DNA of 64,000 nt from Parcubacteria bacterium C7867-008 (GCA_001189215.1 LFCR01000004.1:249635-313634); one strand, 5' to 3'. Shown: positions 2,590 to 63,953, counted from the first letter of the stretch. Program-made: numbers and translations. The notes: generated from the letters alone by a model not told the origin.

Positions 2590-4296
2590 CTACCGAGCAG
2601 AATTCAAAGCAGCGAGCTGTGCGCTAAGGGCACGAAAAGTATGCATCGCTTCGGTTATGGATTCTTGATCGCCCTGTGCTTCAGCGGTACGGAGCTTTTT
2701 TGTAGCATCGTTAAGCTTTGCAGAAAGGACGGTATATTCGAACATCTGGAGCAATTCATCACCCGCGTGCTGATCTGGCGTCTCCCCGTAGGTGAGTCCC
2801 GCCTCGAAAAGGGCTCGCTCGTCCACTGGTAAATCCAGCGAATCGTCAGCGCCTGTAATACGAGCATACTCGCTCTTCACACGATCTGCAAGAGCGGTAT
2901 TGGCATATGCCTGCATAACCGCTAACACCATGCCTCTTCGTACCTCAAGAACGGATGAAGAGATTGGACCAGCTGAAAAGGCACTTCCATAGGTCTCAGA
3001 CTTCTCTTCTGGAGAAACCTCTAATTTAGGAAGTGCACGACGGACAGCTTCTGGAGTTGAGTTCACTGCCCTGGCGATGATCTCAATGAAACGGTTCTGC
3101 TCAAGGGGACTTTTAACGGCAACCACCAGAGGAAGGACTATACCTTCAACGGCTCGCAACAGACGTGTCTCGTCTTTCTCTTGGCTTGAAAGCACGGCAA
3201 GGAAGAACTCAATAATACTCTTGGCGTCTTTAGCGAGTGCGGTGAACGCATGCGGGTCTTCACTCACAATATCTGCAGGATCCTTACCATCTGGCAATCG
3301 AATGGCTTTGACACGCATGCCAGAAAGAAGTGCAGCTCGTGCACTCTTGGCGCTTGCTGCTAAACCCGCTCGGTCTGAGTCTAGGCAGAGCATGAGGTTG
3401 TCTGCATAGCGCTTAATGAGTGAGAGGTGTTGGGTTGAGAGTGCGGTACCCGAAAGTGCGATTGTGTTGGTGAAGCCAGCTTGATGAAGGAGCACGAGAT
3501 CAAACTGCCCTTCTACAAGAATCGCAAACCCTCTCTGACGAATCGCATCTTTTGCACGATCCATGCCGAAGAGAACTTCAGACTTCTTAAAGAGGTCGGT
3601 CTCAGGTGAGTTAAGATACTTTGCTTGATCGTCAGGACTGAGTGCACGACCTGTGAAAGCAACGGTACGCCCTGCTGCATCCCGTATGGGAAACATGAGA
3701 CGGTTCCTGAAACGATCATAGAACGTACCACGTTTCTCATCTGCCTCTTTAATAAGGCCTGCTGTAGTGAGTTCAGGAAGAGTGAAACCTTCACTGGTGA
3801 GAGATTCTAGAAGACTGCGCCACCCATCAGGTGCGAATCCAAGGTTCCACTCAGCAATAGTTTCTTTTGTGAGACCGCGTTTCTGTGCGTAGGCGTATGC
3901 ATCAGTACCGTCACCGAGTGCTCGTGCGAAATATGCTTCTGCCTCGCCCATAGCCTCGCGTAATCGTTCTATACGATCCTTCGACACTTTACTCTCTATG
4001 CTTCCCTGATACACGATCTCTATACCTGCTTTCTCTGCGAGTATCTTCAATGCACCTTTGAAGTCCACACCTTCCATTGCCTGAATGAATGAAAATTGAT
4101 CACCACCCTGACTTGAGGAGAAACAGTAATACGAACCACGCTCTGGGTTTACGTAAAAGGATGGAGTCTTTTCTTTATTAAAAGGAGATAGCCCACGATA
4201 GTACTTCCCTGCTTTCGTGAGCTTCACATAGGGAGAAATAACCTCGATTATCGAAAGTTTATCTTTGACTTGCTGTACGGTATCTTGCCCAGCCAT
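2590..4296 (-). CDS. dnaG: DNA primase DnaG
   Basis: N-terminal primase zinc-finger region (KEKTPSFYVNPERGSYYCF), TOPRIM motifs (EGQFDLV, LDSDRAG), GGAG RBS before the ATG; 30 bp upstream of rpoD on the same strand. Confidence 0.88.
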   Translation of the reverse strand: MAGQDTVQQVKDKLSIIEVISPYVKLTKAGKYYRGLSPFNKEKTPSFYVNPERGSYYCFSSSQGGDQFSFIQAMEGVDFKGALKILAEKAGIEIVYQGSIESKVSKDRIERLREAMGEAEAYFARALGDGTDAYAYAQKRGLTKETIAEWNLGFAPDGWRSLLESLTSEGFTLPELTTAGLIKEADEKRGTFYDRFRNRLMFPIRDAAGRTVAFTGRALSPDDQAKYLNSPETDLFKKSEVLFGMDRAKDAIRQRGFAILVEGQFDLVLLHQAGFTNTIALSGTALSTQHLSLIKRYADNLMLCLDSDRAGLAASAKSARAALLSGMRVKAIRLPDGKDPADIVSEDPHAFTALAKDAKSIIEFFLAVLSSQEKDETRLLRAVEGIVLPLVVAVKSPLEQNRFIEIIARAVNSTPEAVRRALPKLEVSPEEKSETYGSAFSAGPISSSVLEVRRGMVLAVMQAYANTALADRVKSEYARITGADDSLDLPVDERALFEAGLTYGETPDQHAGDELLQMFEYTVLSAKLNDATKKLRTAEAQGDQESITEAMHTFRALSAQLAALNSAR

Positions 4297-4325
4297 TTAT
4301 CTCATTCTACTCCAGAACGTGGTGG

Positions 4326-4373
4326 GTGGAAAAAGTCGAACCCCGAGCGCGCAGATGAATCTGCGGCCGGGGC
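4326..4373 (-). terminator. Intrinsic terminator (minus strand) after small gene A, immediately before the dnaG RBS
   Basis: GC-rich hairpin (ccccgagcgcgcag/ctgcggccggggc) followed on the minus strand by TTCGACTTTTTCC. Confidence 0.6.
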
Positions 4374-4410
4374 TCTGTGCGCCTCCATTGCTGGAAGCTC
4401 TTCTGGGTTG

Positions 4411-4572
4411 TCAGGCGCCGTCGACCTGGTCGGTCCGGGCGGCGACGGGGGTGGTTGCCTTGCGCGCAGCGGTGGCGACGACGGCGGCCTGTGCCGAGGT
4501 GCTGGCGACGGTCATCGATTGACAGGAACCAGAGTCAAAGGTGCAGCGAAGCATAGGGATCTCCCATTGCAT
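4411..4572 (-). CDS. Small GC-rich ORF A (about 47-53 aa), paralogous to ORF B; start may be the internal ATG at 4554
   Basis: MQWEIPMLRCTFDSGSCQSMTVASTSAQAAVVATAARKATTPVAARTDQVDGA. GGGAGA lies 5 nt before the second ATG. It sits downstream of a sigma70-like promoter repeat and is followed by a terminator. Confidence 0.4.
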   Translation of the reverse strand: MQWEIPMLRCTFDSGSCQSMTVASTSAQAAVVATAARKATTPVAARTDQVDGA

Positions 4573-4592
4573 GGCGTAACGGTGCGTCACGT

Positions 4593-4641
4593 CCCACTCA
4601 CTATACGCCTGTTCATGAAGGGTGCAAGAAGTTATGCACAG
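4593..4641 (-). promoter_or_regulatory. 49-bp repeat copy 1: sigma70-like promoter on the minus strand (TTGCAC-N16-TATAGT)
   Basis: Exact duplicate of 4987..5035. On the minus strand it reads ttgcac-ccttcatgaacaggcg-tatagt. Confidence 0.6.
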
Positions 4642-4665
4642 CAATTACAAAATGAATTAACTCAC

Positions 4666-4705
4666 TAAGTATAAGAAAAGGCCCCCAGCGCGTTGCGCCG
4701 GGGAG
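4666..4705 (-). terminator. Intrinsic terminator (minus strand) after small gene B
   Basis: Minus strand ccccggcgcAACgcgctgggg stem-loop followed by gccTTTTCTTATAC. Two further small hairpins (ggtccATTAACggacc; gtctcGCAAgagac) precede it in the 3' UTR. Confidence 0.6.
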
Positions 4706-4749
4706 CCGTGGTGGTGTCTCTTGCGAGACGGAACGGTCCGTTAATGGAC

Positions 4750-4923
4750 CTACTGGGTGTCGACCTGGTGGGTCATCGCGCCGGCGCCGTGGTCCTGGTC
4801 CGAGCTCATGCGGCCGGCGATGTCGGGAGCGGTCTGGCCGGAGTCGGTCGACGGCGCCTGGATCTGGGTCACGAAGCGGTGGGCCTGGGCGAAGGTCGCC
4901 TGGGTGGTGAGACGAGGGGACAT
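4750..4923 (-). CDS. Small GC-rich ORF B (57 aa), paralogous to ORF A
   Basis: MSPRLTTQATFAQAHRFVTQIQAPSTDSGQTAPDIAGRMSSDQDHGAGAMTHQVDTQ. Strong RBS AAGAGG 6 nt before the ATG. It shares DSG and C-terminal QVD motifs with ORF A. Confidence 0.45.
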   Translation of the reverse strand: MSPRLTTQATFAQAHRFVTQIQAPSTDSGQTAPDIAGRMSSDQDHGAGAMTHQVDTQ

Positions 4924-4986
4924 GAAGTACCTCTTGTGTCTGCGGTTTCTGAAAACGGCCATATTCCAGTTATCTGGCGTCTGGCA

Positions 4987-5035
4987 CCCACTCACTATAC
5001 GCCTGTTCATGAAGGGTGCAAGAAGTTATGCACAG
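4987..5035 (-). promoter_or_regulatory. 49-bp repeat copy 2: sigma70-like promoter on the minus strand driving ORF B
   Basis: Identical to 4593..4641, with -35 TTGCAC and -10 TATAGT at 16-nt spacing on the minus strand. Confidence 0.6.
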
Positions 5036-5255
5036 TTACAGGAAAACGGCCTTTCGGCCGCTTTTCCTCACGCCCGACCATCAGATGAGTCATCCTTACA
5101 GTTAAATGAATCAGCATTGCTGGGCGGAAACAAAACTCTCGGGCACGAGTTGGCAAGGATATTTCCATTTTAATACTTTAACCAGCAACCTAACTATACT
5201 GATTCGAGATAGAAGAAATAGAATGTAGTTATAAAGTTTTACTGAAGAAAAAAGA

Positions 5256-5290
5256 AAAACCACCTGTTAAACAGGTGGTTTTTCTTTTAG
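5256..5290. terminator. Rho-independent terminator after rpoC
   Basis: aaaaaccacctgtttaacaggtggttttt perfect stem with A/T flanks. Confidence 0.8.
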
Positions 5291-5299
5291 AAGATTGGG

Positions 5300-8200
5300 T
5301 TATGCCTTGAAAGCAACGCCCGGTGCTTCTACCTCTTCTTCTGCGCGAGGCATACGTGCTGCACGAGCTGCCTGAAGATCGTCAATTGACGCGCGCTTCT
5401 TGCTACCCTTGAAGCCTGTACCTGCGGGGATAAGGCGTCCGAGAATCACGTTCTCCTTGAGACCGCGGAGTGTGTCGGTTGAACCCTTAAGCGCAGCATT
5501 GATGAGGATCTTGGTGGTCTGCTCGAATGATGCAGCAGAAAGGAATGAGCGACGTGAGAGTGCAGATTCCTTAATACCGAGCACCATTTCACGAGCTACC
5601 GGAGCAATTTTGCCCTGGTCCTCCATAGCCTTCACTTCCTGCTCCATCTCCCAGTGCTCAACGACGTCATTGATGGACCACTCTGAGTCACCGGTAACGG
5701 TAACCTTAGCGCGTGAGAACATCTGACGTACGACGACTTCGAGGTGCTTGCGAGAAACCGAAGCTCCCTGAAGTTCATAGATCTTCGAAGTCTCAGTGAT
5801 GATGTACTCCTGTACCGCTGCACGGCCTGCGTACTCGAAGAGTTCATCGAGATCTACGGAACCGTCCGTGAGGAGCTGTCCACGTGTTACCGCTTCCCCT
5901 TCCTTCACGAATGACTGACGAGGATATGGTGCAACGTATTCGATTGCGGTTCCATTCTTCTTACCCTGGCCAACCTCAGGCTGTACCACTATAACTTTGT
6001 CTCGTCCCTGATCACGGATCTCCGTTACCACACCGTCTGTCTTAGAAACGGTAGCTGGATTCTTAGGAGAACGCTTCTCAAAGAGTTCTTCAACACGAGG
6101 GAGACCCTGGGTGATGTCTCCACCAACAGAGGCGGTACCTCCAGCGTGGAAGGTACGCATCGTGAGCTGAGTTCCCGGCTCACCGATAGCCTGTGCAGCA
6201 ATCGTACCGACTGCTTCACCGAGGTCTACCATCACCTGTGTGGTGAGATCCATACCGTAACAAGCAGCACAGATACCATAGCGAGTCTCACAAGACATCG
6301 GAGATAGCACCTGAACGCTCTGAATAGAATCGTCAGCAGCTACAGCACGTGCATCATCTGCGGTTAGGTAGTGACGAGTCTTGAACGCACCTGCGGGTGC
6401 TGCAAGTACACGACCACGAGTGCTTTCTGCGAAGTCGATCTTGATACCTGAAGCGGATACGCGATTGATCGCAACACCACGCTTGGTACCACAATCGGTC
6501 TCCGTGATGATAGAGTCCTGCGCCACATCGAAGAGACGACGGGTGAGGTATCCGGCACGAGCGGTACCGAGTGCGGTGTCGGTAAGACCCTTACGTGCAC
6601 CGTGCGTACTCATGAAGTACTCAAGTGGGTTAAGACCTTCCGTCATAGAAGACACAATCGGCACTTCAATAGTCTCTCCAGCAGTGTTCTGGATAAGACC
6701 CTTCATACCTGCCATCTGGGTTAGGTTACCCATCGAACCGCGGGCTCCAGACGTCACCATGTCTGAGACAGAACCCATAGGGTCTAGTGCCTCACCCACG
6801 AGTGCCTCTACTTCCTGCTTAGTGCCGTGCCATACCTCGATGACCATACGACGCTTCTCATCCTCAGAGAGGAGACCGTCCTTGAAGTCTCCTTCAATCT
6901 TCGCGATCTTCTCACGAGCAGCGCTGATAACAGCAACCTTACCTGCAGGAACCTTCACGTCGTCCAGACTCCACGATACGCCAGACTTGGTCGCATACTC
7001 GAAGCCGAACTTCTTGATCTTGTTTACGATGCCTGGAATAGCATCGAGACCGTAGCGTACGATGCTGTCTGCCATGATGCTTGAGAGCACCTTCTTGGTG
7101 ATCGCATCATTAACATACGGATAATCACTTGGAAGGACCGTGTTGAAGAGGAGACGTCCTACGGTTGTCTCGAAAGTCTTTCCTTCGAACATCGCATACT
7201 TCACCTTCTCGGTTGTTGGAAGCACATGAACCTTAGCGCGTAGATCAATACCATCATACTCATACGCAAGGATCGCTGCGTTAGGGGATGCGAAGTACTC
7301 GCCTTCTCCCTTAGCACCAGGTACTTCCTTAGTGAGCCAGTACGTTCCAAGAACGATGTCGAGTGGCTTCTGCGTCATAACAATCATCTCACCAGAACCT
7401 GGCTTGAGGATGTTCTTGTTAGCAGACATGATGTTCGCTGCCTCCCACTGTGCCTCTTCTGAAAGGGGTACGTGGATAGCCATCTGGTCTCCGTCGAAGT
7501 CTGCGTTGAACGCCGGACACACGAGTGGGTGGAGCTGGATAGCATCACCTTCGATAAGACGAGGACGGAATGCCTGGATACCCTGACGGTGCAGTGTAGG
7601 AGCACGGTTCAAGAGAACGTGCTTACCCATAATTGCTTCTTCAAGGATCTCCCACACCTCTGGTACACCGTCTTCAATGAGACGACCGGCACCACGGATG
7701 TTGAAGGCGAGTTCTCGATCAAGGAGTCCTGCGATAACGAATGGACGGAAGAGCTCAAGTGCCATGTGCTTAGGAAGACCACACTCATCGAGTTCGAGGT
7801 CTGGACCCACCACAATCACCGAACGTCCTGAGTAGTCCACACGCTTACCAAGAAGGTTCTGGCGGAAGTATCCCTGCTTACCCTTTAGGTAGTCAGCAAG
7901 AGACTTAAGCGGACGGCGCTGTGCAGGAGTAAGAGCACCACCTGATGCACCACTCTTACGAATAGAGTTGTCTAGAAGAGCATCAACTGCTTCCTGAAGA
8001 ATACGCTTCTCGTTACGGAGAATAACTTCAGGTGCATGGATGTCGAGCAGCTTCTTAAGACGGTTGTTGCGGTTGATCACACGTCGGTAGAGGTCGTTAA
8101 CGTCAGACGTAGCGTGACGACCACCTTCGAGTGCCACCATCGGGCGAAGTGCTGGAGGAATAACAGGGATCTTGGTGAGGAACATCCATTCAGGACGTAC

Positions 8201-21260: not shown

Positions 21261-21380
21261 CAAATAGATTTTGACAGGTTATTATTTTGAGAATAGTATA
21301 TCTAAGTACCAGTCTTCTCAGCACGCTGAGCGAGGATAAAGGAAAGGAAAACGGCCCACGGGCCGTTTTCCTTTTAATAA

Positions 21381-32604: not shown

Positions 32605-33645
32605 TCAGTTGAACGTGAAGGGCGTCGCGATCAGGCGATGCTCAGGCCCATAGGACCCGGTGGCCGCCTTGCCATTCGAGTAGAGCGGCTTTCCGTCCGG
32701 CTTCTCGAGGTCGACGCAGGCGATCACGACCTGCCACTGCAGGTCAGGTGGCCCGAAGATGCTGACCGTCTGTTCTTCTTCAACGAAACGGACTTCGTTG
32801 CTGCCAACCCCCGAATTCACATCGAGGTTCTTGACCGAAGTGATGGTGCCGTCGTCGATCAAGCGAAGGACGTGAGCTTCCGGTTCGCGGAAGCTGCAGT
32901 TCTTGGACTCGCAGTCCTTGCTGAAAGGCTTCTTCTGCCCACCGGGCAGTTGAATCGTCAGCGGACACTTACTGAGCGTCTTGAGGTCATGGTCTCCCAC
33001 CACCTCGTAACGGAACACGCGCGAGCGCGGCGGAAGGCGATAGACGAGCTCCACGCAGTGGATCTCGACGACGACTCCCTCCGGTTCATGGTGTTCACCA
33101 CGCTTCGGGTTAGAGCAGTCCGGGAACATAACGTTGTCGCCGTTGTGCCAGATATAGGTCTCGGTCGGAGAGAGCTTGCGGTGCATGCAGCCGAGGATGG
33201 TTTGATATCCGCCGTCCTGCGCATGCAGGCAGTCCATGCTCCACTCGGTCGCGCGTTCTGCGGCAGTGGGCACTCGCCGCTGGAAGTGCTCGACGTAGGC
33301 GATCGTTCCTTCGAGGGTCAGGCCGGGTGCTTTGACCCGGAAAGATTCCCAGTAGTTCCGAATGCTGGCGCAAGACCCATCGGTCTTGCAGCGTTCGGGA
33401 TCGATCACGGCGTTGTAGTCGCTGGTGCGCTTGTAGACCGCGCGCATCTTCTTGGCCAGATCTTGCGGGGACGTGTTGCCCCGAAGAAACGGCAGATTGT
33501 GCTCGCGCTGTGACGTGGAAGTCACTTCCGCGAGAATCGAAGAAGACACGGCAGTGACTGCCATGCGTTCCGCCATCGTCCCTGCAGACGCCGCCCCCGC
33601 CGTGAAGGCGAAGAGCAGCGCCAGGGCGGTGAGCTTGAGCTTCAT
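32605..33645 (-). CDS. Secreted hypothetical protein (346 aa) encoded by markedly GC-richer DNA
   Basis: Signal peptide MKLKLTALALLFAFTAGAASA. GC-rich third codon positions (ctc/gcc/ctg/gcg) unlike neighbours. Multiple Cys. Confidence 0.55.
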   Translation of the reverse strand: MKLKLTALALLFAFTAGAASAGTMAERMAVTAVSSSILAEVTSTSQREHNLPFLRGNTSPQDLAKKMRAVYKRTSDYNAVIDPERCKTDGSCASIRNYWESFRVKAPGLTLEGTIAYVEHFQRRVPTAAERATEWSMDCLHAQDGGYQTILGCMHRKLSPTETYIWHNGDNVMFPDCSNPKRGEHHEPEGVVVEIHCVELVYRLPPRSRVFRYEVVGDHDLKTLSKCPLTIQLPGGQKKPFSKDCESKNCSFREPEAHVLRLIDDGTITSVKNLDVNSGVGSNEVRFVEEEQTVSIFGPPDLQWQVVIACVDLEKPDGKPLYSNGKAATGSYGPEHRLIATPFTFN

Positions 33646-33757: not shown

Positions 33758-34417
33758 CTAGGCTCCGATCAGGTCGCTCTTCACAAGGTTCGCCGTAACG
33801 ACGAAGCGATCAGACTTGGTACCGAATGAGTTACAGGTTGCAAGAGTAAGCTTGCTTCCAGTAACGACGAGCGGAATTGAGTCAGACTCTGCATCTGCCT
33901 TTACGACGGTCTCAACGGCATATTCATACACATGGTCTGAACCAATGACCTTGATACGGTCGCCGGGCTTCAGATCCTGAATGCCATCGAAGGCCTTGAA
34001 TGCGGGATTGTTCACAATCGGCAGATAACTTGAGTGGCCAAATATGATTACATTCCCTGCCTCCCCAAGATTTGATGAAGACGGGTATCGGACAGCACCT
34101 TTGAGGAGTGCGTTGTCCAACACCGATACTTCAGATGAATCTGGGTTCGATACAGTAACAGAGAGCTTGATACTTGGGATCTCAATCTTGGTAGGTGACT
34201 CCGGACGAGTAGTTACGGCCTGTATAGCAGATGCTGTCAGGTTGGTAGCTACTTTTACCGGAGCCACAGGAACGAGATCCAGAGCAATAAGGGAGCTATA
34301 TGAGGTGAGGAATACCAATGCGAAAGCAACCATGAAGCTCCACTTCTTGGTTGAAACCTTCTGCCCGGCCTGCACGCTCTTAGCGGCGACCTTGATTATT
34401 GGTCCTTTTGTTGCCAT
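33758..34417 (-). CDS. Sortase-family transpeptidase
   Basis: N-terminal TM anchor; catalytic motifs IIFGHS (His) and TLATC (Cys, TLxTC) with a downstream Arg (RFVVTANL). Confidence 0.75.
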   Translation of the reverse strand: MATKGPIIKVAAKSVQAGQKVSTKKWSFMVAFALVFLTSYSSLIALDLVPVAPVKVATNLTASAIQAVTTRPESPTKIEIPSIKLSVTVSNPDSSEVSVLDNALLKGAVRYPSSSNLGEAGNVIIFGHSSYLPIVNNPAFKAFDGIQDLKPGDRIKVIGSDHVYEYAVETVVKADAESDSIPLVVTGSKLTLATCNSFGTKSDRFVVTANLVKSDLIGA

Positions 34418-61387: not shown

Positions 61388-62524
61388 TTACATTTTTGCG
61401 TATCTGCCGCCGCCTTGAGTTCGATGTTCGGTGGTTCGTTTTGGCATGTTCGTATAGTCCGGGTGCGCCGGGATGTTGCCGTGCTGCATGAATTCGATAA
61501 ACGATTCGACGATCTCTTTCGCGTCGCCGAGATTCTCGACGTGCGTCAGGCTTTTCAAATTCTTATTCAGCCTAGCCTTATCTTGTTTAGGATTCTTGTA
61601 AGTATTTTGGAAAAGCTGCCAGCGTTCCTTGAGATCGTTACCCCACATCATCGTGTAAAATTGAGAGCTCTCCAGGTTCGAGTGACCGAGGATGTTAGTA
61701 ACGTCTGCGCTCGCACCTCCCTCCTTGATGATCTTGCGACCACCGTAATGCCGAGCCGAGTGTGCGTTGAAGATTGTTGGTAGCTCCGCGCGATTCGATA
61801 GCATTCTGAATACCTCGCAGACCCCGCGGCCGGTCATGCGCTTTCCGCGCACATCGAATGCGCCGCACTTGCGGATCGATGTAAAGACGGCACCTGAGTC
61901 CTCGAAGACCATCTTATCCTGAATCTCCTCCTTCTTCTTAAGCCATGCCTTCAGGTACTTGCCGGTCTGGGCAGTCCAGAAGATTTCACGGATCGGGCGG
62001 CGTCCTCTCGACTTCTCGGTCTTTATGATCGCGGACCCTGAGAGGTCCTTATTGAACTCGAGGTCGTCGACGTTGAGCGAAACGACTTCGCCGCTGCGGG
62101 CCCAGCTGTCCCATACCACATGGATCAGCGCCAGGTTCCGGATATTGTTCGGGTTGTTGTCGCGCGGAATCGCCTTTACCAACTTCTTGAAGTCAGGCTC
62201 ATTCGCAACGCGGGGAATGTTGAATTCTTTCCGAGGAAGTGGAATCAACGATTCGTTCAGGCAGTTGTGCCCACGAAGATTGTAAAACTCGAAGAATTTA
62301 CGCAGCGCAAGCGCCACGATATTTATACCGTTACGCTTCCAGCCGAGCCGCTCGAGCTCGCTGAGGTAGTGGAGAATGTGGCCTATCTGAATCTGCTCGA
62401 TTTCCGGATCGCCCATCGTAAGGCAGAAAATCCGAAGCACGGCATCATACCGGACCACCGTTTGGCCGGTAACCTTGAAGCCTCTCCAGTTCTTGAATTC
62501 TTCTATAGCTTTGCTTAGTTTCAT
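61388..62524 (-). mobile_element. Tyrosine recombinase / phage-type integrase gene (378 aa)
   Basis: N-terminal SAM-like core-binding domain; C-terminal catalytic domain with conserved Arg...HSARHYGG...LGHSNLESSQFY (R-H-R-Y type). Confidence 0.8.
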
Positions 62525-62939
62525 TTTGCATGCGCAAACGAAAAGTCCACTTGATGCTAGTCAAAGTGGACCTTTCGTTGCCTGCATTTAGAAACTAAAT
62601 GTGGGCCGATCCCAAGCTTGGGATGCAACCCTATTCGGGTTGCCCCAGCATTCTACCCTACCCCTTTGAAGGATATCAAGAATGATTTTTGGGCTGGTCC
62701 ATTGCTAGCATCAGGTCGTTGCCGACCCGATCCCTTTCGGGACAATGGTTCTTATTCGTAATGTGCCACTATAACCTAGTATAGTGGCTAGCCATTGTCA
62801 ACGAGGATTTTCTATCCTCTAATAAAATCAAAGCAGGACATCAAAAAAGTCAATAAATGTAAGGGTTTTTTGAGGTATATGAAAAAGTCGCACCGCTTTT
62901 GAGGGCGATGCGACTTGAGACTTCATGAAGCCGAGGCTT

Positions 62940-63953
62940 TTATTTCAGCCTATTTCGTACCTTTTCCAGGAAATCGACGATCTCCATGGTGAGGGCCGGT
63001 AAATCGGCGTGAGCGCCTATCTCGATCGGGATTGGGACCCTGGGATTTCGACCTAGGAGCTCCCCTATCGTGATCCTGCGCCCATCATGTCCTTCGAGGC
63101 GGCCGAAGAGTTCGACGCTCGTGTCCAGGCAGAACCTGGAAAGCTCTCGAGCCCCTTCAGGCGGCAGGCTTGCCCACGCTTCCATCAAGCCGAACGGCTC
63201 GATGTACGGATAAGAGCAGCTGAACCCGTCGGCCGTCTGGACCGGCATGAGGCCCCGCGGCGTTTGTTCGCCGAGGACCCGTCCGCAGTTTGGTATGAAC
63301 GGAATAAGATCGTGGTCGGGAATCCAGTCGATTAGGTTTTCGATCGGATTCACTATGACGAGCTCGCCCACGTATTCTTCCGTGAGGACCGCTTTTGCCC
63401 GGGTGCAGCAGAAGCCGATGAGGGCTGCTGTGACCTTGAGCCCGCGCCGCTTTAGCTCCGTGAGCACGCAGCGAAGCGTACCTCCGCTGAATGCTCCGTC
63501 CTCGATGAGGAGGACCGAACGTCCTGCGATCCGCGCGACAAGTTCATCGAGCTGCTTGTCTATCGGCTCGAATCCCGGACGAGCGCCGTGGCCTATCAGT
63601 TCCCCTTCCGTATTGAACAGTCGGTTGATGTTAAGCAGCAGACCCTCGCTCTTGGGATTCGCATCGGTGATTTCCTGACATGTGCTCAGGACGACCTGGC
63701 GAGTTGAATCTGTCAGGCGGCTTTCCACCTGGTCCCAGATTTTGAGCCGCAGCTCGCTCATGTCGATGGCGTCGATGGTGACGCCGGGCAGGGTTTGCTG
63801 CATCCTTTCGAGAAGATGCTGGCGGAAGCGCTCGAAGATTGGATCGTGCTGGTTGAAAGCTAATCCGCTCGTGCGAAGCGCGTTGAATCGGCTAGCGACG
63901 TCATAGGTAACCACGTAGGTCCCATGACGAGCCGCCTGTGCGACGATGCTCAT
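62940..63953 (-). CDS. Phosphoribosyltransferase (PRTase)-domain protein with extra N- and C-terminal regions, in GC-richer DNA
   Basis: PRPP-binding-type motif SVLLIEDGAFSGGTL in the middle of a 337-aa protein; codon usage visibly GC-richer than the core genome. Confidence 0.5.
   Translation of the reverse strand: MSIVAQAARHGTYVVTYDVASRFNALRTSGLAFNQHDPIFERFRQHLLERMQQTLPGVTIDAIDMSELRLKIWDQVESRLTDSTRQVVLSTCQEITDANPKSEGLLLNINRLFNTEGELIGHGARPGFEPIDKQLDELVARIAGRSVLLIEDGAFSGGTLRCVLTELKRRGLKVTAALIGFCCTRAKAVLTEEYVGELVIVNPIENLIDWIPDHDLIPFIPNCGRVLGEQTPRGLMPVQTADGFSCSYPYIEPFGLMEAWASLPPEGARELSRFCLDTSVELFGRLEGHDGRRITIGELLGRNPRVPIPIEIGAHADLPALTMEIVDFLEKVRNRLK

Follow-up and report, generated by a model that had tools for sequence, protein, structure and literature searches.

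What stands between rpoC and dnaG in Parcubacteria bacterium C7867-008? In the 64,000-nucleotide stretch of this genome under analysis (LFCR01000004.1:249635-313634; hereafter, the window), the minus strand carries at this place two tandem segments of about 300 nucleotides (nt) each, strongly rich in G+C and each headed by one copy of a 49-bp direct repeat. They are termed here unit B and unit A, in the order in which they are read, and are followed by dnaG and rpoD. A preliminary description of this DNA had presented them as tandem, divergent paralogues running from promoter to terminator, and had hesitated between peptide genes and small RNAs (sRNAs). The arrangement is supported by the present analysis, and the hesitation corresponds to a real ambiguity. 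The explanation favored here, to which we give about an even chance, is that the units are orphan small genes restricted to a narrow Parcubacteria clade; they would be paralogues, each with a transcript of its own, and their products would probably be disordered peptides. The difficulty lies in a contradiction: the units display a strong, long-maintained periodicity of coding type without purifying selection on the peptide.

For comparison, loci anchored on DnaG were collected from 185,579 species genomes and also from metagenomes, which gave 160 loci (1.35 Mb). The extra family members yielded by this search are the following alone: (i) C7867-007 (locus L001; DnaG 91% identical), with one B-type unit whose open reading frame (ORF) encodes 62 amino acids (aa); (ii) RYN_391 (DnaG 85% identical), with two dnaG loci, L002 and L003, the former with a B-type unit (29 aa) and the latter with an A-type unit (30 aa); and (iii) a low-coverage Hainich groundwater contig (L081; DnaG 82% identical), which holds a promoter-less trace composed of a truncated unit and a short unit with no usable ORF. 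The units are absent from the remaining relatives among the 160 loci, and all those with a DnaG identity of 72% or lower lack them. Within the 64-kb window, no further copy of either unit was found.

Organization of the Two Units

The direct repeat is exact (4593-4641 and 4987-5035), the chance expectation being 0 matches, and it reads on the minus strand, as had been described, TTGCAC-N16-TATAGT. All the elements of the units given below lie on that strand. In the first copy, the putative promoter block of unit B (4987-5035), the -35 element TTGCAC is at 5021-5016 and the -10 element TATAGT at 4999-4994, separated by a 16-nt spacer which contains the palindrome TTCATGAA; transcription of unit B would start near 4987. 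In the second copy, the corresponding block of unit A (4593-4641), the two elements are at 4627-4622 and 4605-4600. The repeat-borne promoter is not called by the consensus scan, because its -35 element fits the consensus at 3/6 positions. Support for this candidate promoter is comparative: TTG and GGnGTAnAGTnAnTGnG do not vary, nor does the spacing between them, in 5/5 units (3 genomes); the spacer palindrome is present in 4/5; the homologous promoter of L002 is called by the scan (TTGACC-16-TAGAGT); and a nhmmer profile of the block matches the units alone in the 1.35 Mb of relatives.

The two copies in the window are 100% identical, whereas the orthologous copy of L001 differs from them at 6/49 positions, which points to gene conversion or to a recent duplication of the promoter alone. 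On the plus strand, the repeat holds ACTCACTATA, i.e., the core of the T7 promoter (4593-4606 and 4987-5000). This resemblance arises from the minus-strand -10 region (GTATAGTGAG) and was judged to be due to chance; a T7-like promoter was rejected because a minus-strand sigma-70 unit is what fits the TTG, invariant at 16 nt, and the succession of Shine-Dalgarno (SD) element, ORF and terminator downstream of it, and because the relatives read AATCACTCTA.

Downstream of its promoter block, unit B comprises a 5' untranslated region (UTR; 4924-4986) in which sequence and predicted fold reveal a stem-loop, GCCAG...CUGG...GGC, and an SD-like element, AAGAGG, at 4935-4930. ORF B (4750-4923) has 57 aa plus the stop TAG (MSPRLTTQATFAQAHRFVTQIQAPSTDSGQTAPDIAGRMSSDQDHGAGAMTHQVDTQ) and begins as AAGAGG-N6-ATG. 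A first hairpin, GGUCC-AUUAAC-GGACC (4750-4735), begins at the G of the stop codon itself, and a second one, GUCUC-GCAA-GAGAC (4729-4716), has a GNRA loop. The unit ends in a predicted intrinsic terminator (4672-4704), called by the scan, whose stem of 10 pairs (4704-4682) leads into CCTTTTCTTA.

Unit A is built in the same manner. Its 5' UTR (4555-4592) contains a short hairpin and the SD-like element GGGAGA (4565-4560), and its start region, ATGGGAGATCCCTATG, resembles that of L003, ATGGAGAAGCCCTATG. ORF A (4411-4554; GGGAGA-N5-ATG) has 47 aa plus the stop TGA (MLRCTFDSGSCQSMTVASTSAQAAVVATAARKATTPVAARTDQVDGA), so that both ORFs are as initially reported in length and start. Sequence and fold give a 3' hairpin, GCUUCCA-GCAA-UGGAGGC (4381-4398), again with a GNRA loop, and folding gives a terminator-like stem of about 16 pairs, bulged and imperfect, followed by UUCGAC-UUUUU (4326-4375). 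Of the hairpin and U-tract terminators earlier described for both units, the consensus scan calls that of unit B; terminator A is not called because its T-run begins 6 nt past the stem. The homologous site of L003 is called as a terminator, and so is the terminator of L001. In all five units, a 5' hairpin is accompanied by a purine-rich SD-like element located 5-7 nt before the ATG.

As regards the relationship between the two units, they share the DNA GTCGACCTGGTnGGTC at 4420-4435 and 4759-4774 and, otherwise, patches of 11-28 nt alone. It had been stated that QVD occurs near both C-termini with conserved DNA around it, and this is indeed the case. A further motif that had been described as common to both peptides, [TF]DSG..Q[ST], fits peptide A alone; peptide B reads TDSGQT and would need a 2-residue gap to match it.

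Base Composition and Codon Usage

The unit segments contain the highest-G+C 150-nt windows in the 64 kb (0.65-0.72, versus a mean of 0.49 and a standard deviation of 0.05), in agreement with the contrast first noticed. The G+C periodicity tracks the frame of the ORFs. The G+C content at the first, second and third codon positions (GC1, GC2 and GC3) is 0.64/0.53/0.95 in ORF B and 0.60/0.67/0.79 in ORF A. Across the five unit ORFs, GC3 reaches 0.95 (B), 0.79 (A), 0.92 (L001), 0.80 and 0.81, versus about 0.45 in the long ORFs of the window, among whose 58-codon windows the highest value is 0.83. The binomial probability of the GC3 is 5e-6 for ORF B and 6e-5 for the L001 ORF.

This composition is reflected in a peculiar codon usage. 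GCC amounts to 58% in the ORFs versus 12% in the genome, GGC to 83% versus 18%, and GTC to 86% versus 14%; TCG is likewise rare in the genome. Every Thr codon in the unit ORFs is ACC, every Asp codon is GAC, and 62% of the third positions are C. The possibility that a high GC3 marks high expression was considered and rejected because the ribosomal-protein genes, tsf and rpoC have a GC3 of 0.37-0.57 and favor GCA, GGT and CGT.

Evidence for Translation and Points Against It

The comparison of unit B with its counterpart in L001 shows that the frame is kept: the distance from the ATG to block 1 is 69 nt in unit B and 84 nt, or 15 more, in L001, from block 1 to block 2 it is 57/57, and from block 2 to the stop it is 45/45. 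The conserved TAG stop is shared by L002. The peptides of ORF B and of the L001 ORF are 52.5% identical over 40 aa (tblastn, E = 1e-7), and have in common APSTD[ST]GQ and G-x-GA-x-THQV-x-TQ. Elsewhere, unit interiors are hardly alignable, and it is in the promoter block that conservation is highest.

The predicted peptides, which include the stretches LTTQATFAQAHR, FVTQIQAPSTDSGQTAPDIAGR and MSSDQDHGAGAMTHQVDTQ, are hydrophilic and have no hydrophobic stretch; peptide B contains 6 Asp, 0 Lys and 3 Arg. Their C-termini are DTQ, ATQ, NTH, DGA and GAA. The sole alternative frame with the same periodicity lies on the plus strand. The antisense ORFs found there (131-138 aa; 125 aa in the Joint Genome Institute [JGI] annotation) were discarded, the same-phase frame being Trp-rich nonsense that runs through the promoter block.

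A number of observations weigh against the interpretation of the units as peptide genes. When ORF B is aligned with its L001 counterpart, the whole set of aligned codons shows 16/17/15 differences at positions 1/2/3, and 4 synonymous versus 24 non-synonymous codon changes; over the last 35 ungapped codons, the differences are 12/8/6, with the third positions the most conserved. Thus, purifying selection on the amino-acid sequence is not indicated by the codon-position differences between these two ORFs. By contrast, in dnaG from the same pair of genomes the divergence is 7.6% at position 1, 3.5% at position 2 and 41.8% at position 3. ORF length varies from 29 to 62 aa across the units, and the second unit of L081 retains GGGAGA but no usable ORF. 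By our own calculation, an open frame of some 60 codons at 70% G+C has a chance of about 1/3, and all six frames are open here. The ORFs are made up of codons that are rare in the genome (GCC, GGC, GTC, TCG). A search for homologues that covered 5.8 billion clustered and 1.84 billion representative proteins returned the query itself and two repeat-protein artefacts alone. AlphaFold2 predicts nothing other than coil (pLDDT 63, pTM 0.15). Finally, the NCBI and JGI gene calls conflict in strand and length for unit B. To this can be added that no family match was found in Pfam (five peptides, E <= 10), NCBIfam or PHROG.

In spite of these points, we infer that the units are transcribed and translated, and that selection acts on expression, on the frame, on the G+C-rich codons and on two short motifs, and not on the whole peptide. 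A maintained frame and codon composition, together with two motifs in a peptide that is otherwise free to change, fit a short disordered peptide, possibly with a constraint at the RNA level as well; the product may be a small disordered binding or regulatory peptide, and its C-rich RNA possibly acts as well. According to the mechanism proposed here, a fast-evolving family would have entered a spacer between rpoC and dnaG that was ancestrally short. Every unit would be transcribed as a monocistronic RNA from a sigma-70-type promoter within the block of about 49 bp, whose copies would be kept identical, presumably by gene conversion or by recent promoter duplication. The transcript would carry (i) a stabilizing 5' hairpin; (ii) an SD element and an ATG, from which a hydrophilic, probably disordered peptide of 47-57 aa would be translated; and (iii) GNRA-type hairpins and an intrinsic terminator at its end.

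Lineage-specific orphan small ORFs in G+C-rich DNA can encode intrinsically disordered peptides. The units resemble them in their narrow clade, their coil prediction, their fast turnover and the high G+C that holds frames open. They differ from random G+C-rich ORFs in that their GC3 of 0.8-0.95 is far stronger and has been kept over a neutral divergence of about 42%, and in that the promoter block and the 3' hairpins are constrained. Elements of this kind, whether orphan small ORFs or small RNA units, are known; the family is new and unannotated, and no account of such elements was found in the literature. Parcubacteria and the Candidate Phyla Radiation (CPR) as a whole have tiny genomes, most of whose DNA is expected to be useful and, to our knowledge, almost nothing has been reported on small proteins and regulatory RNAs in the CPR. 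If expressed, the units would be a test case for the origin and persistence of orphan small genes in reduced genomes, and would serve to test whether codon composition is itself a selected trait. In any case, they are a well-documented curiosity of narrow distribution and not a new mechanism.

Structured RNA as an Alternative

Several of the above-mentioned observations can also be understood if the units act as small regulatory RNAs, whether non-coding or of dual function, in which the functional molecule is a C-rich structured transcript of about 270-320 nt and the ORFs are incidental or secondary. This is the principal alternative, if a less probable one. An intergenic island rich in G+C is a typical mark of a structured RNA. 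The greater conservation of third positions, with amino-acid-changing positions free to vary, counts in its favor, and the unstable ORF lengths and the ORF-less second unit of L081 go in the same direction. Moreover, conservation crosses the stop codon: in the B-type units of the window, L001 and L002, the sequence ACCCA[GC]TAGGTCCA...CGGACC spans the stop and the first hairpin, and the GNRA hairpin GTCTCGCAAGAGAC is identical in the window and in L001. The unit transcripts are 37-38% C.

The folding of the transcripts and a search for covarying structure, which the preliminary description had suggested, gave a divided answer. The folding z-scores of the units are moderate (-2.8, -2.5 and -3.7), and they count in favor of an RNA function. 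Covariation is nearly absent: B-type stems are mostly invariant, and 2/25 predicted pairs change on both sides among three sequences. With respect to L001, the stem of terminator B shows one compensatory pair (G-C to A-U) and another change from G-U to G-C.

A perfect complementarity of 15 nt exists between unit B (4860-4846) and unit A (4426-4412), namely CAGGCGCCGTCGACC and GGTCGACGGCGCCTG; one that long was found in 0/500 dinucleotide shuffles, which is a further point for the RNA interpretation. It consists of GGCGCC and GTCGAC, two palindromes whose order is swapped. An RNA duplex between A and B was nevertheless rejected, as the complementarity is absent from the L002/L003 pair and the L001 unit has no partner. 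In the rest of the window, no suggestive target complementarity of at least 12 nt was found. Similarly, Rfam 15 yields no family at the gathering threshold in the units (the sole hit that passes in the window is a tRNA-Thr elsewhere), and at E <= 10 the sole match within the units, over 4200-5350, is to the terminator-like ctRNA_p42d, at 20.7 bits versus a threshold of 50.

Against the RNA interpretation stands the period-3 G+C pattern in the ORF frame of all five units, unexpected for a purely non-coding RNA, together with the conservation of SD and ATG and a frame kept over the 15-nt difference in length. Dual-function sRNAs that encode a small peptide include RNAIII/hld, SgrS/SgrT and SR1/SR1P. 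Like them, the units, as read from the sequence, are promoter-to-terminator entities of a few hundred nt with stable hairpins and a short SD-bearing ORF. Unlike them, they show neither sequence nor Rfam relation to those RNAs and no target complementarity in the window, and the ORF fills most of the unit transcript. In the approach of the Breaker laboratory based on G+C-rich intergenic regions (GC-IGR), structured non-coding RNAs have reportedly been found as G+C-rich intergenic islands. The units share with such RNAs the intergenic G+C peaks with a terminator and several hairpins, and are set apart from them by a period-3 signal of coding type, almost no covariation and no match in Rfam 15.

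Gene Order in Relatives and Origin of the Units

The units had been thought to occupy the place that rpsU takes in the classical operon. The relatives contradict this idea. In L004, dnaG comes directly after rpoC; in L006, L008, L012, L060, L071 and L009, a small opposite-strand gene for a membrane protein lies between rpoC and dnaG. Since the ancestral order of the lineage is rpoC-dnaG, either direct or with the opposite-strand membrane gene, the units are, judging from gene order, a clade-specific insertion in an rpoC-dnaG spacer with gene flux and not a replacement of rpsU. Nothing points to rpsU ever having stood at this place: neither the five peptides nor the long ORFs of 4265-5173, in any frame, match S21 (rpsU) in Pfam at E <= 10, and the peptides have no such match in NCBIfam. 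A derivation of the units from the opposite-strand membrane-protein gene was tried and discarded, tblastn of those proteins against 4297-5300 being empty.

The search for further family members with a degenerate promoter pattern gave 0 matches on JGI metagenome contigs; on viral contigs, there were 0 matches to the promoter pattern and 0 to the stop-hairpin pattern. As a separate observation, in RYN_391 the B-type unit stands before one dnaG and the A-type unit before the other, with differing small opposite-strand genes, which is compatible with two co-binned strains or with a duplicated region.

The compositional contrast had been taken as a sign of foreign origin. The very atypical codon usage is confirmed; the origin itself stays unproven, with no donor found among proteins or in plasmid and phage DNA and with GC3 maintained. 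A more extreme version, according to which the unit interiors are functionless remnants of horizontally acquired high-GC DNA (from a partner, a host or a mobile element), pieces of a foreign coding gene lying by chance behind a native promoter, appears improbable. The acquisition of high-GC DNA is plausible as such, because other GC3-rich, probably acquired genes of the window have similar codon preferences (32608-33645, with a GC3 of 0.78, and 61391-63953, with 0.68-0.70, the latter including a phage-type integrase). Besides, high-GC coding DNA shows the pattern GC1 > GC2 << GC3, and gene flux is seen in the clade at the rpoC-dnaG spacer. Against a remnant without function stands the persistence of the composition: GC3 still amounts to 0.92-0.95 in two lineages about 42% apart at neutral sites, with no decay toward 0.45, which argues for maintenance and not for a recent import. 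The promoter, the SD-ATG, the stop-proximal hairpins and the terminator are conserved, and the alignable part of the ORF is less diverged than the third positions of dnaG. Protein searches revealed neither donor nor homologue, and distant blastn searches against plasmids and phages were empty.

Another account, which we also regard as unlikely, is that of "composition-selected" translated RNAs: what is maintained would be no peptide sequence but a G+C-saturated, C-rich frame in codons foreign to the genome. Either the translation of rare codons would be regulatory for the flanking genes of transcription and replication, or a high-GC partner of this presumed symbiont would be the recipient of the RNA or peptide, or the source from which it was copied.

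Relation to dnaG and Remaining Readings

Immediately upstream of dnaG, where a ribosome-binding site (RBS) had been located after terminator A, there is no clear RBS; a promoter-like sequence is found instead (TTTCCA-17-TAGAAT, 4332-4304, minus strand), which is called by the scan and whose -10 element ends 7 nt before the ATG at 4296. Similar -10-like elements (TAGAAT/TAAAAT), located 7-8 nt before the ATG and with no SD, occur in L001-L004, L006, L008 and L012, that is, also in relatives that have no units. This conservation suggests that, in this group of Parcubacteria, the dnaG mRNA is leaderless or nearly so; in the window it is probably leaderless, because the -10 element ends 7 nt before the start codon. 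We infer that dnaG-rpoD are expressed apart from the units, from the dnaG promoter.

These data bear on the proposal that the units are leader-peptide attenuators. In analogy to the leaky rpsU-dnaG terminator of Escherichia coli, how much transcription passes the terminator into dnaG-rpoD would then depend on translation of the rare-codon ORF. The proposal, which we consider very unlikely, would explain why each unit has a short ORF followed by a terminator directly upstream of dnaG, why the codons are genome-rare, and why frame and codon composition are kept while the peptide sequence is not. Nonetheless, the dnaG promoter-like element is conserved also where there are no units; unit B precedes another promoter and not a gene; stop and terminator are 50-90 nt apart, and the stretch that separates them holds stable, independent hairpins; the folds show no alternative antiterminator pairing; and there is no run of a single regulatory codon.

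The E. coli macromolecular-synthesis (MMS) operon has the order rpsU-dnaG-rpoD with the internal terminator T1, and the sigA operon of Bacillus subtilis the order yqxD/P23-dnaG-sigA. The C7867-008 locus resembles both in that a small gene and a terminator lie directly before the adjacent dnaG-rpoD. It differs from them in that (i) the unit genes are not rpsU or yqxD (they have no Pfam match and are acidic or neutral, not basic); and (ii) the units have predicted promoters and terminators of their own, dnaG is preceded by a conserved promoter-like element, and the ancestral neighbor is rpoC.

Precursors of secreted or modified peptides, i.e., ribosomally synthesized and post-translationally modified peptides (RiPPs), bacteriocin-like peptides or effectors toward a partner cell, are highly improbable, although RiPP-like and effector-like peptides had been suggested: the small, variable peptides rich in Ser, Thr and, in A, also Cys, their rapid divergence, typical of interaction molecules, and the signatures of a symbiotic lifestyle in Parcubacteria genomes (PMC4508563) would suit them, but there is no signal peptide or double-glycine leader, the B-type peptides are Cys-free, no Pfam, NCBIfam or PHROG match was obtained, and the idea finds no support in the locus because the neighbors are rpoC and dnaG, with no modification, transport or immunity genes. 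As for other systems, a type I toxin-antitoxin pair is not indicated, with no hydrophobic peptide and no antisense promoter called within the units; and no near-identical template/variable pair, as in the target of a diversity-generating retroelement, was seen (reverse transcriptase was not searched for). Pup is characterized by its family profile and a C-terminal GG[QE]. For Pup/UBact, there was no Pfam match at E <= 10 and the C-termini have no GG[QE], ligase and proteasome genes not having been searched for.

Genomic Context and Annotation

On the minus strand, the locus reads rpoC, terminator hairpin, A+T-rich spacer, G+C hairpin, unit B, unit A, dnaG and rpoD. The rpoC gene (9034-5300), upstream of both units, is followed by a strong terminator hairpin (5250-5288) and, between this and the hairpin at 5041-5067, by an A+T-rich spacer of about 180 nt. 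At the other end, dnaG (4296-2590), with DnaG and Toprim domains, encodes GenBank protein KND49740.1, and rpoD (2560-1250), with Sigma70 r1-r4 domains, comes directly after it.

The 4201-5400 sequence is identical in a separately assembled JGI contig, and homologous units are present in assemblies from other studies; hence, the unit region is not an assembly chimera. The C7867-008 genome is an 808-kb metagenome-assembled genome from a Hanford sample, in 6 contigs and with 48% G+C (PMC4508563). In GenBank, unit B is annotated on the sense strand as a hypothetical protein of 70 aa, AB203_01485, from an earlier ATG (4750-4962, minus strand), and protein look-ups gave no GenBank protein matching unit A. 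In the JGI annotation, a 125-aa antisense ORF covers unit B (region 4693-5088, plus strand) and a 59-aa ORF represents unit A. An annotation correction can therefore be proposed, since callers differ on the strand and start of unit B and each unit is missed by one caller.

The upstream edge of unit B is marked by the G+C hairpin GGAAAAGCGGCCGAAAGGCCGTTTTCC (5041-5067), with T-runs on each strand, of the bidirectional terminator type. The scan gives a terminator-like site on the plus strand at 5047-5060, and in L001, L002 and L003 a counterpart of this hairpin likewise stands ahead of the units. Hairpins of the type GGAAAACGGCC-N4-GGCCGTTTTCC, flanked by T- and A-runs, are found at 21347-21375 as well as at 5041-5067 and in L001-L003, and appear to be bidirectional terminators.

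In the interval between the rpoC terminator and unit B (5036-5250, minus strand), a third -10-like copy, GTATAGTTAG, is located at 5199-5190, and the hairpin at 5041-5067 forms the end of the interval. A third unit in 5036-5192 was considered and rejected, the folding z-score being just -1.6. The same interval contains, on the plus strand at 5109-5171, a weak match to the HTH-XRE RNA (24.6 bits versus a gathering score of 49.8).

In L001, the equivalent interval, from the rpoC terminator to the unit, shows a tRNA-like element on the plus strand (5415-5482), whose acceptor is GTCGGTG/CACCGGC and whose T-arm is GAGGGTTCAAGTCCCTC. It has a weak Rfam match to mascRNA (24.7 bits, E = 0.014) and no tRNA call from ARAGORN, and there is none at the equivalent site of the window; it is possibly what remains of a tRNA, or else a scar left by integration. 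Next to it, also on the plus strand and upstream of the unit (5492-5590), the succession of TTGACG-17-TAGTAT, about 45 nt and a conserved GGCCGAAAGGCC hairpin terminator has the appearance of a mini transcription unit, whose body, GATGAGGGAAATCC, shows complementarity over 14 nt with the tRNA-like element.

Concerning the other GC3-rich genes of the window, the one at 32608-33645 (minus strand) encodes a 346-aa Cys-rich protein with a signal-peptide-like N-terminus and adjoins a sortase gene (33761-34417, minus strand); this may be a surface protein that was acquired or that is expressed in a special way. The phage-type integrase gene (61391-62524, minus strand; 378 aa, GC3 0.68) belongs to an atypical block (61391-63953) at the window edge, and its neighbor, with a GC3 of 0.70, has a weak, sub-threshold match to a phosphoribosyltransferase domain. 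The 61391-63953 block is probably an integrated element.

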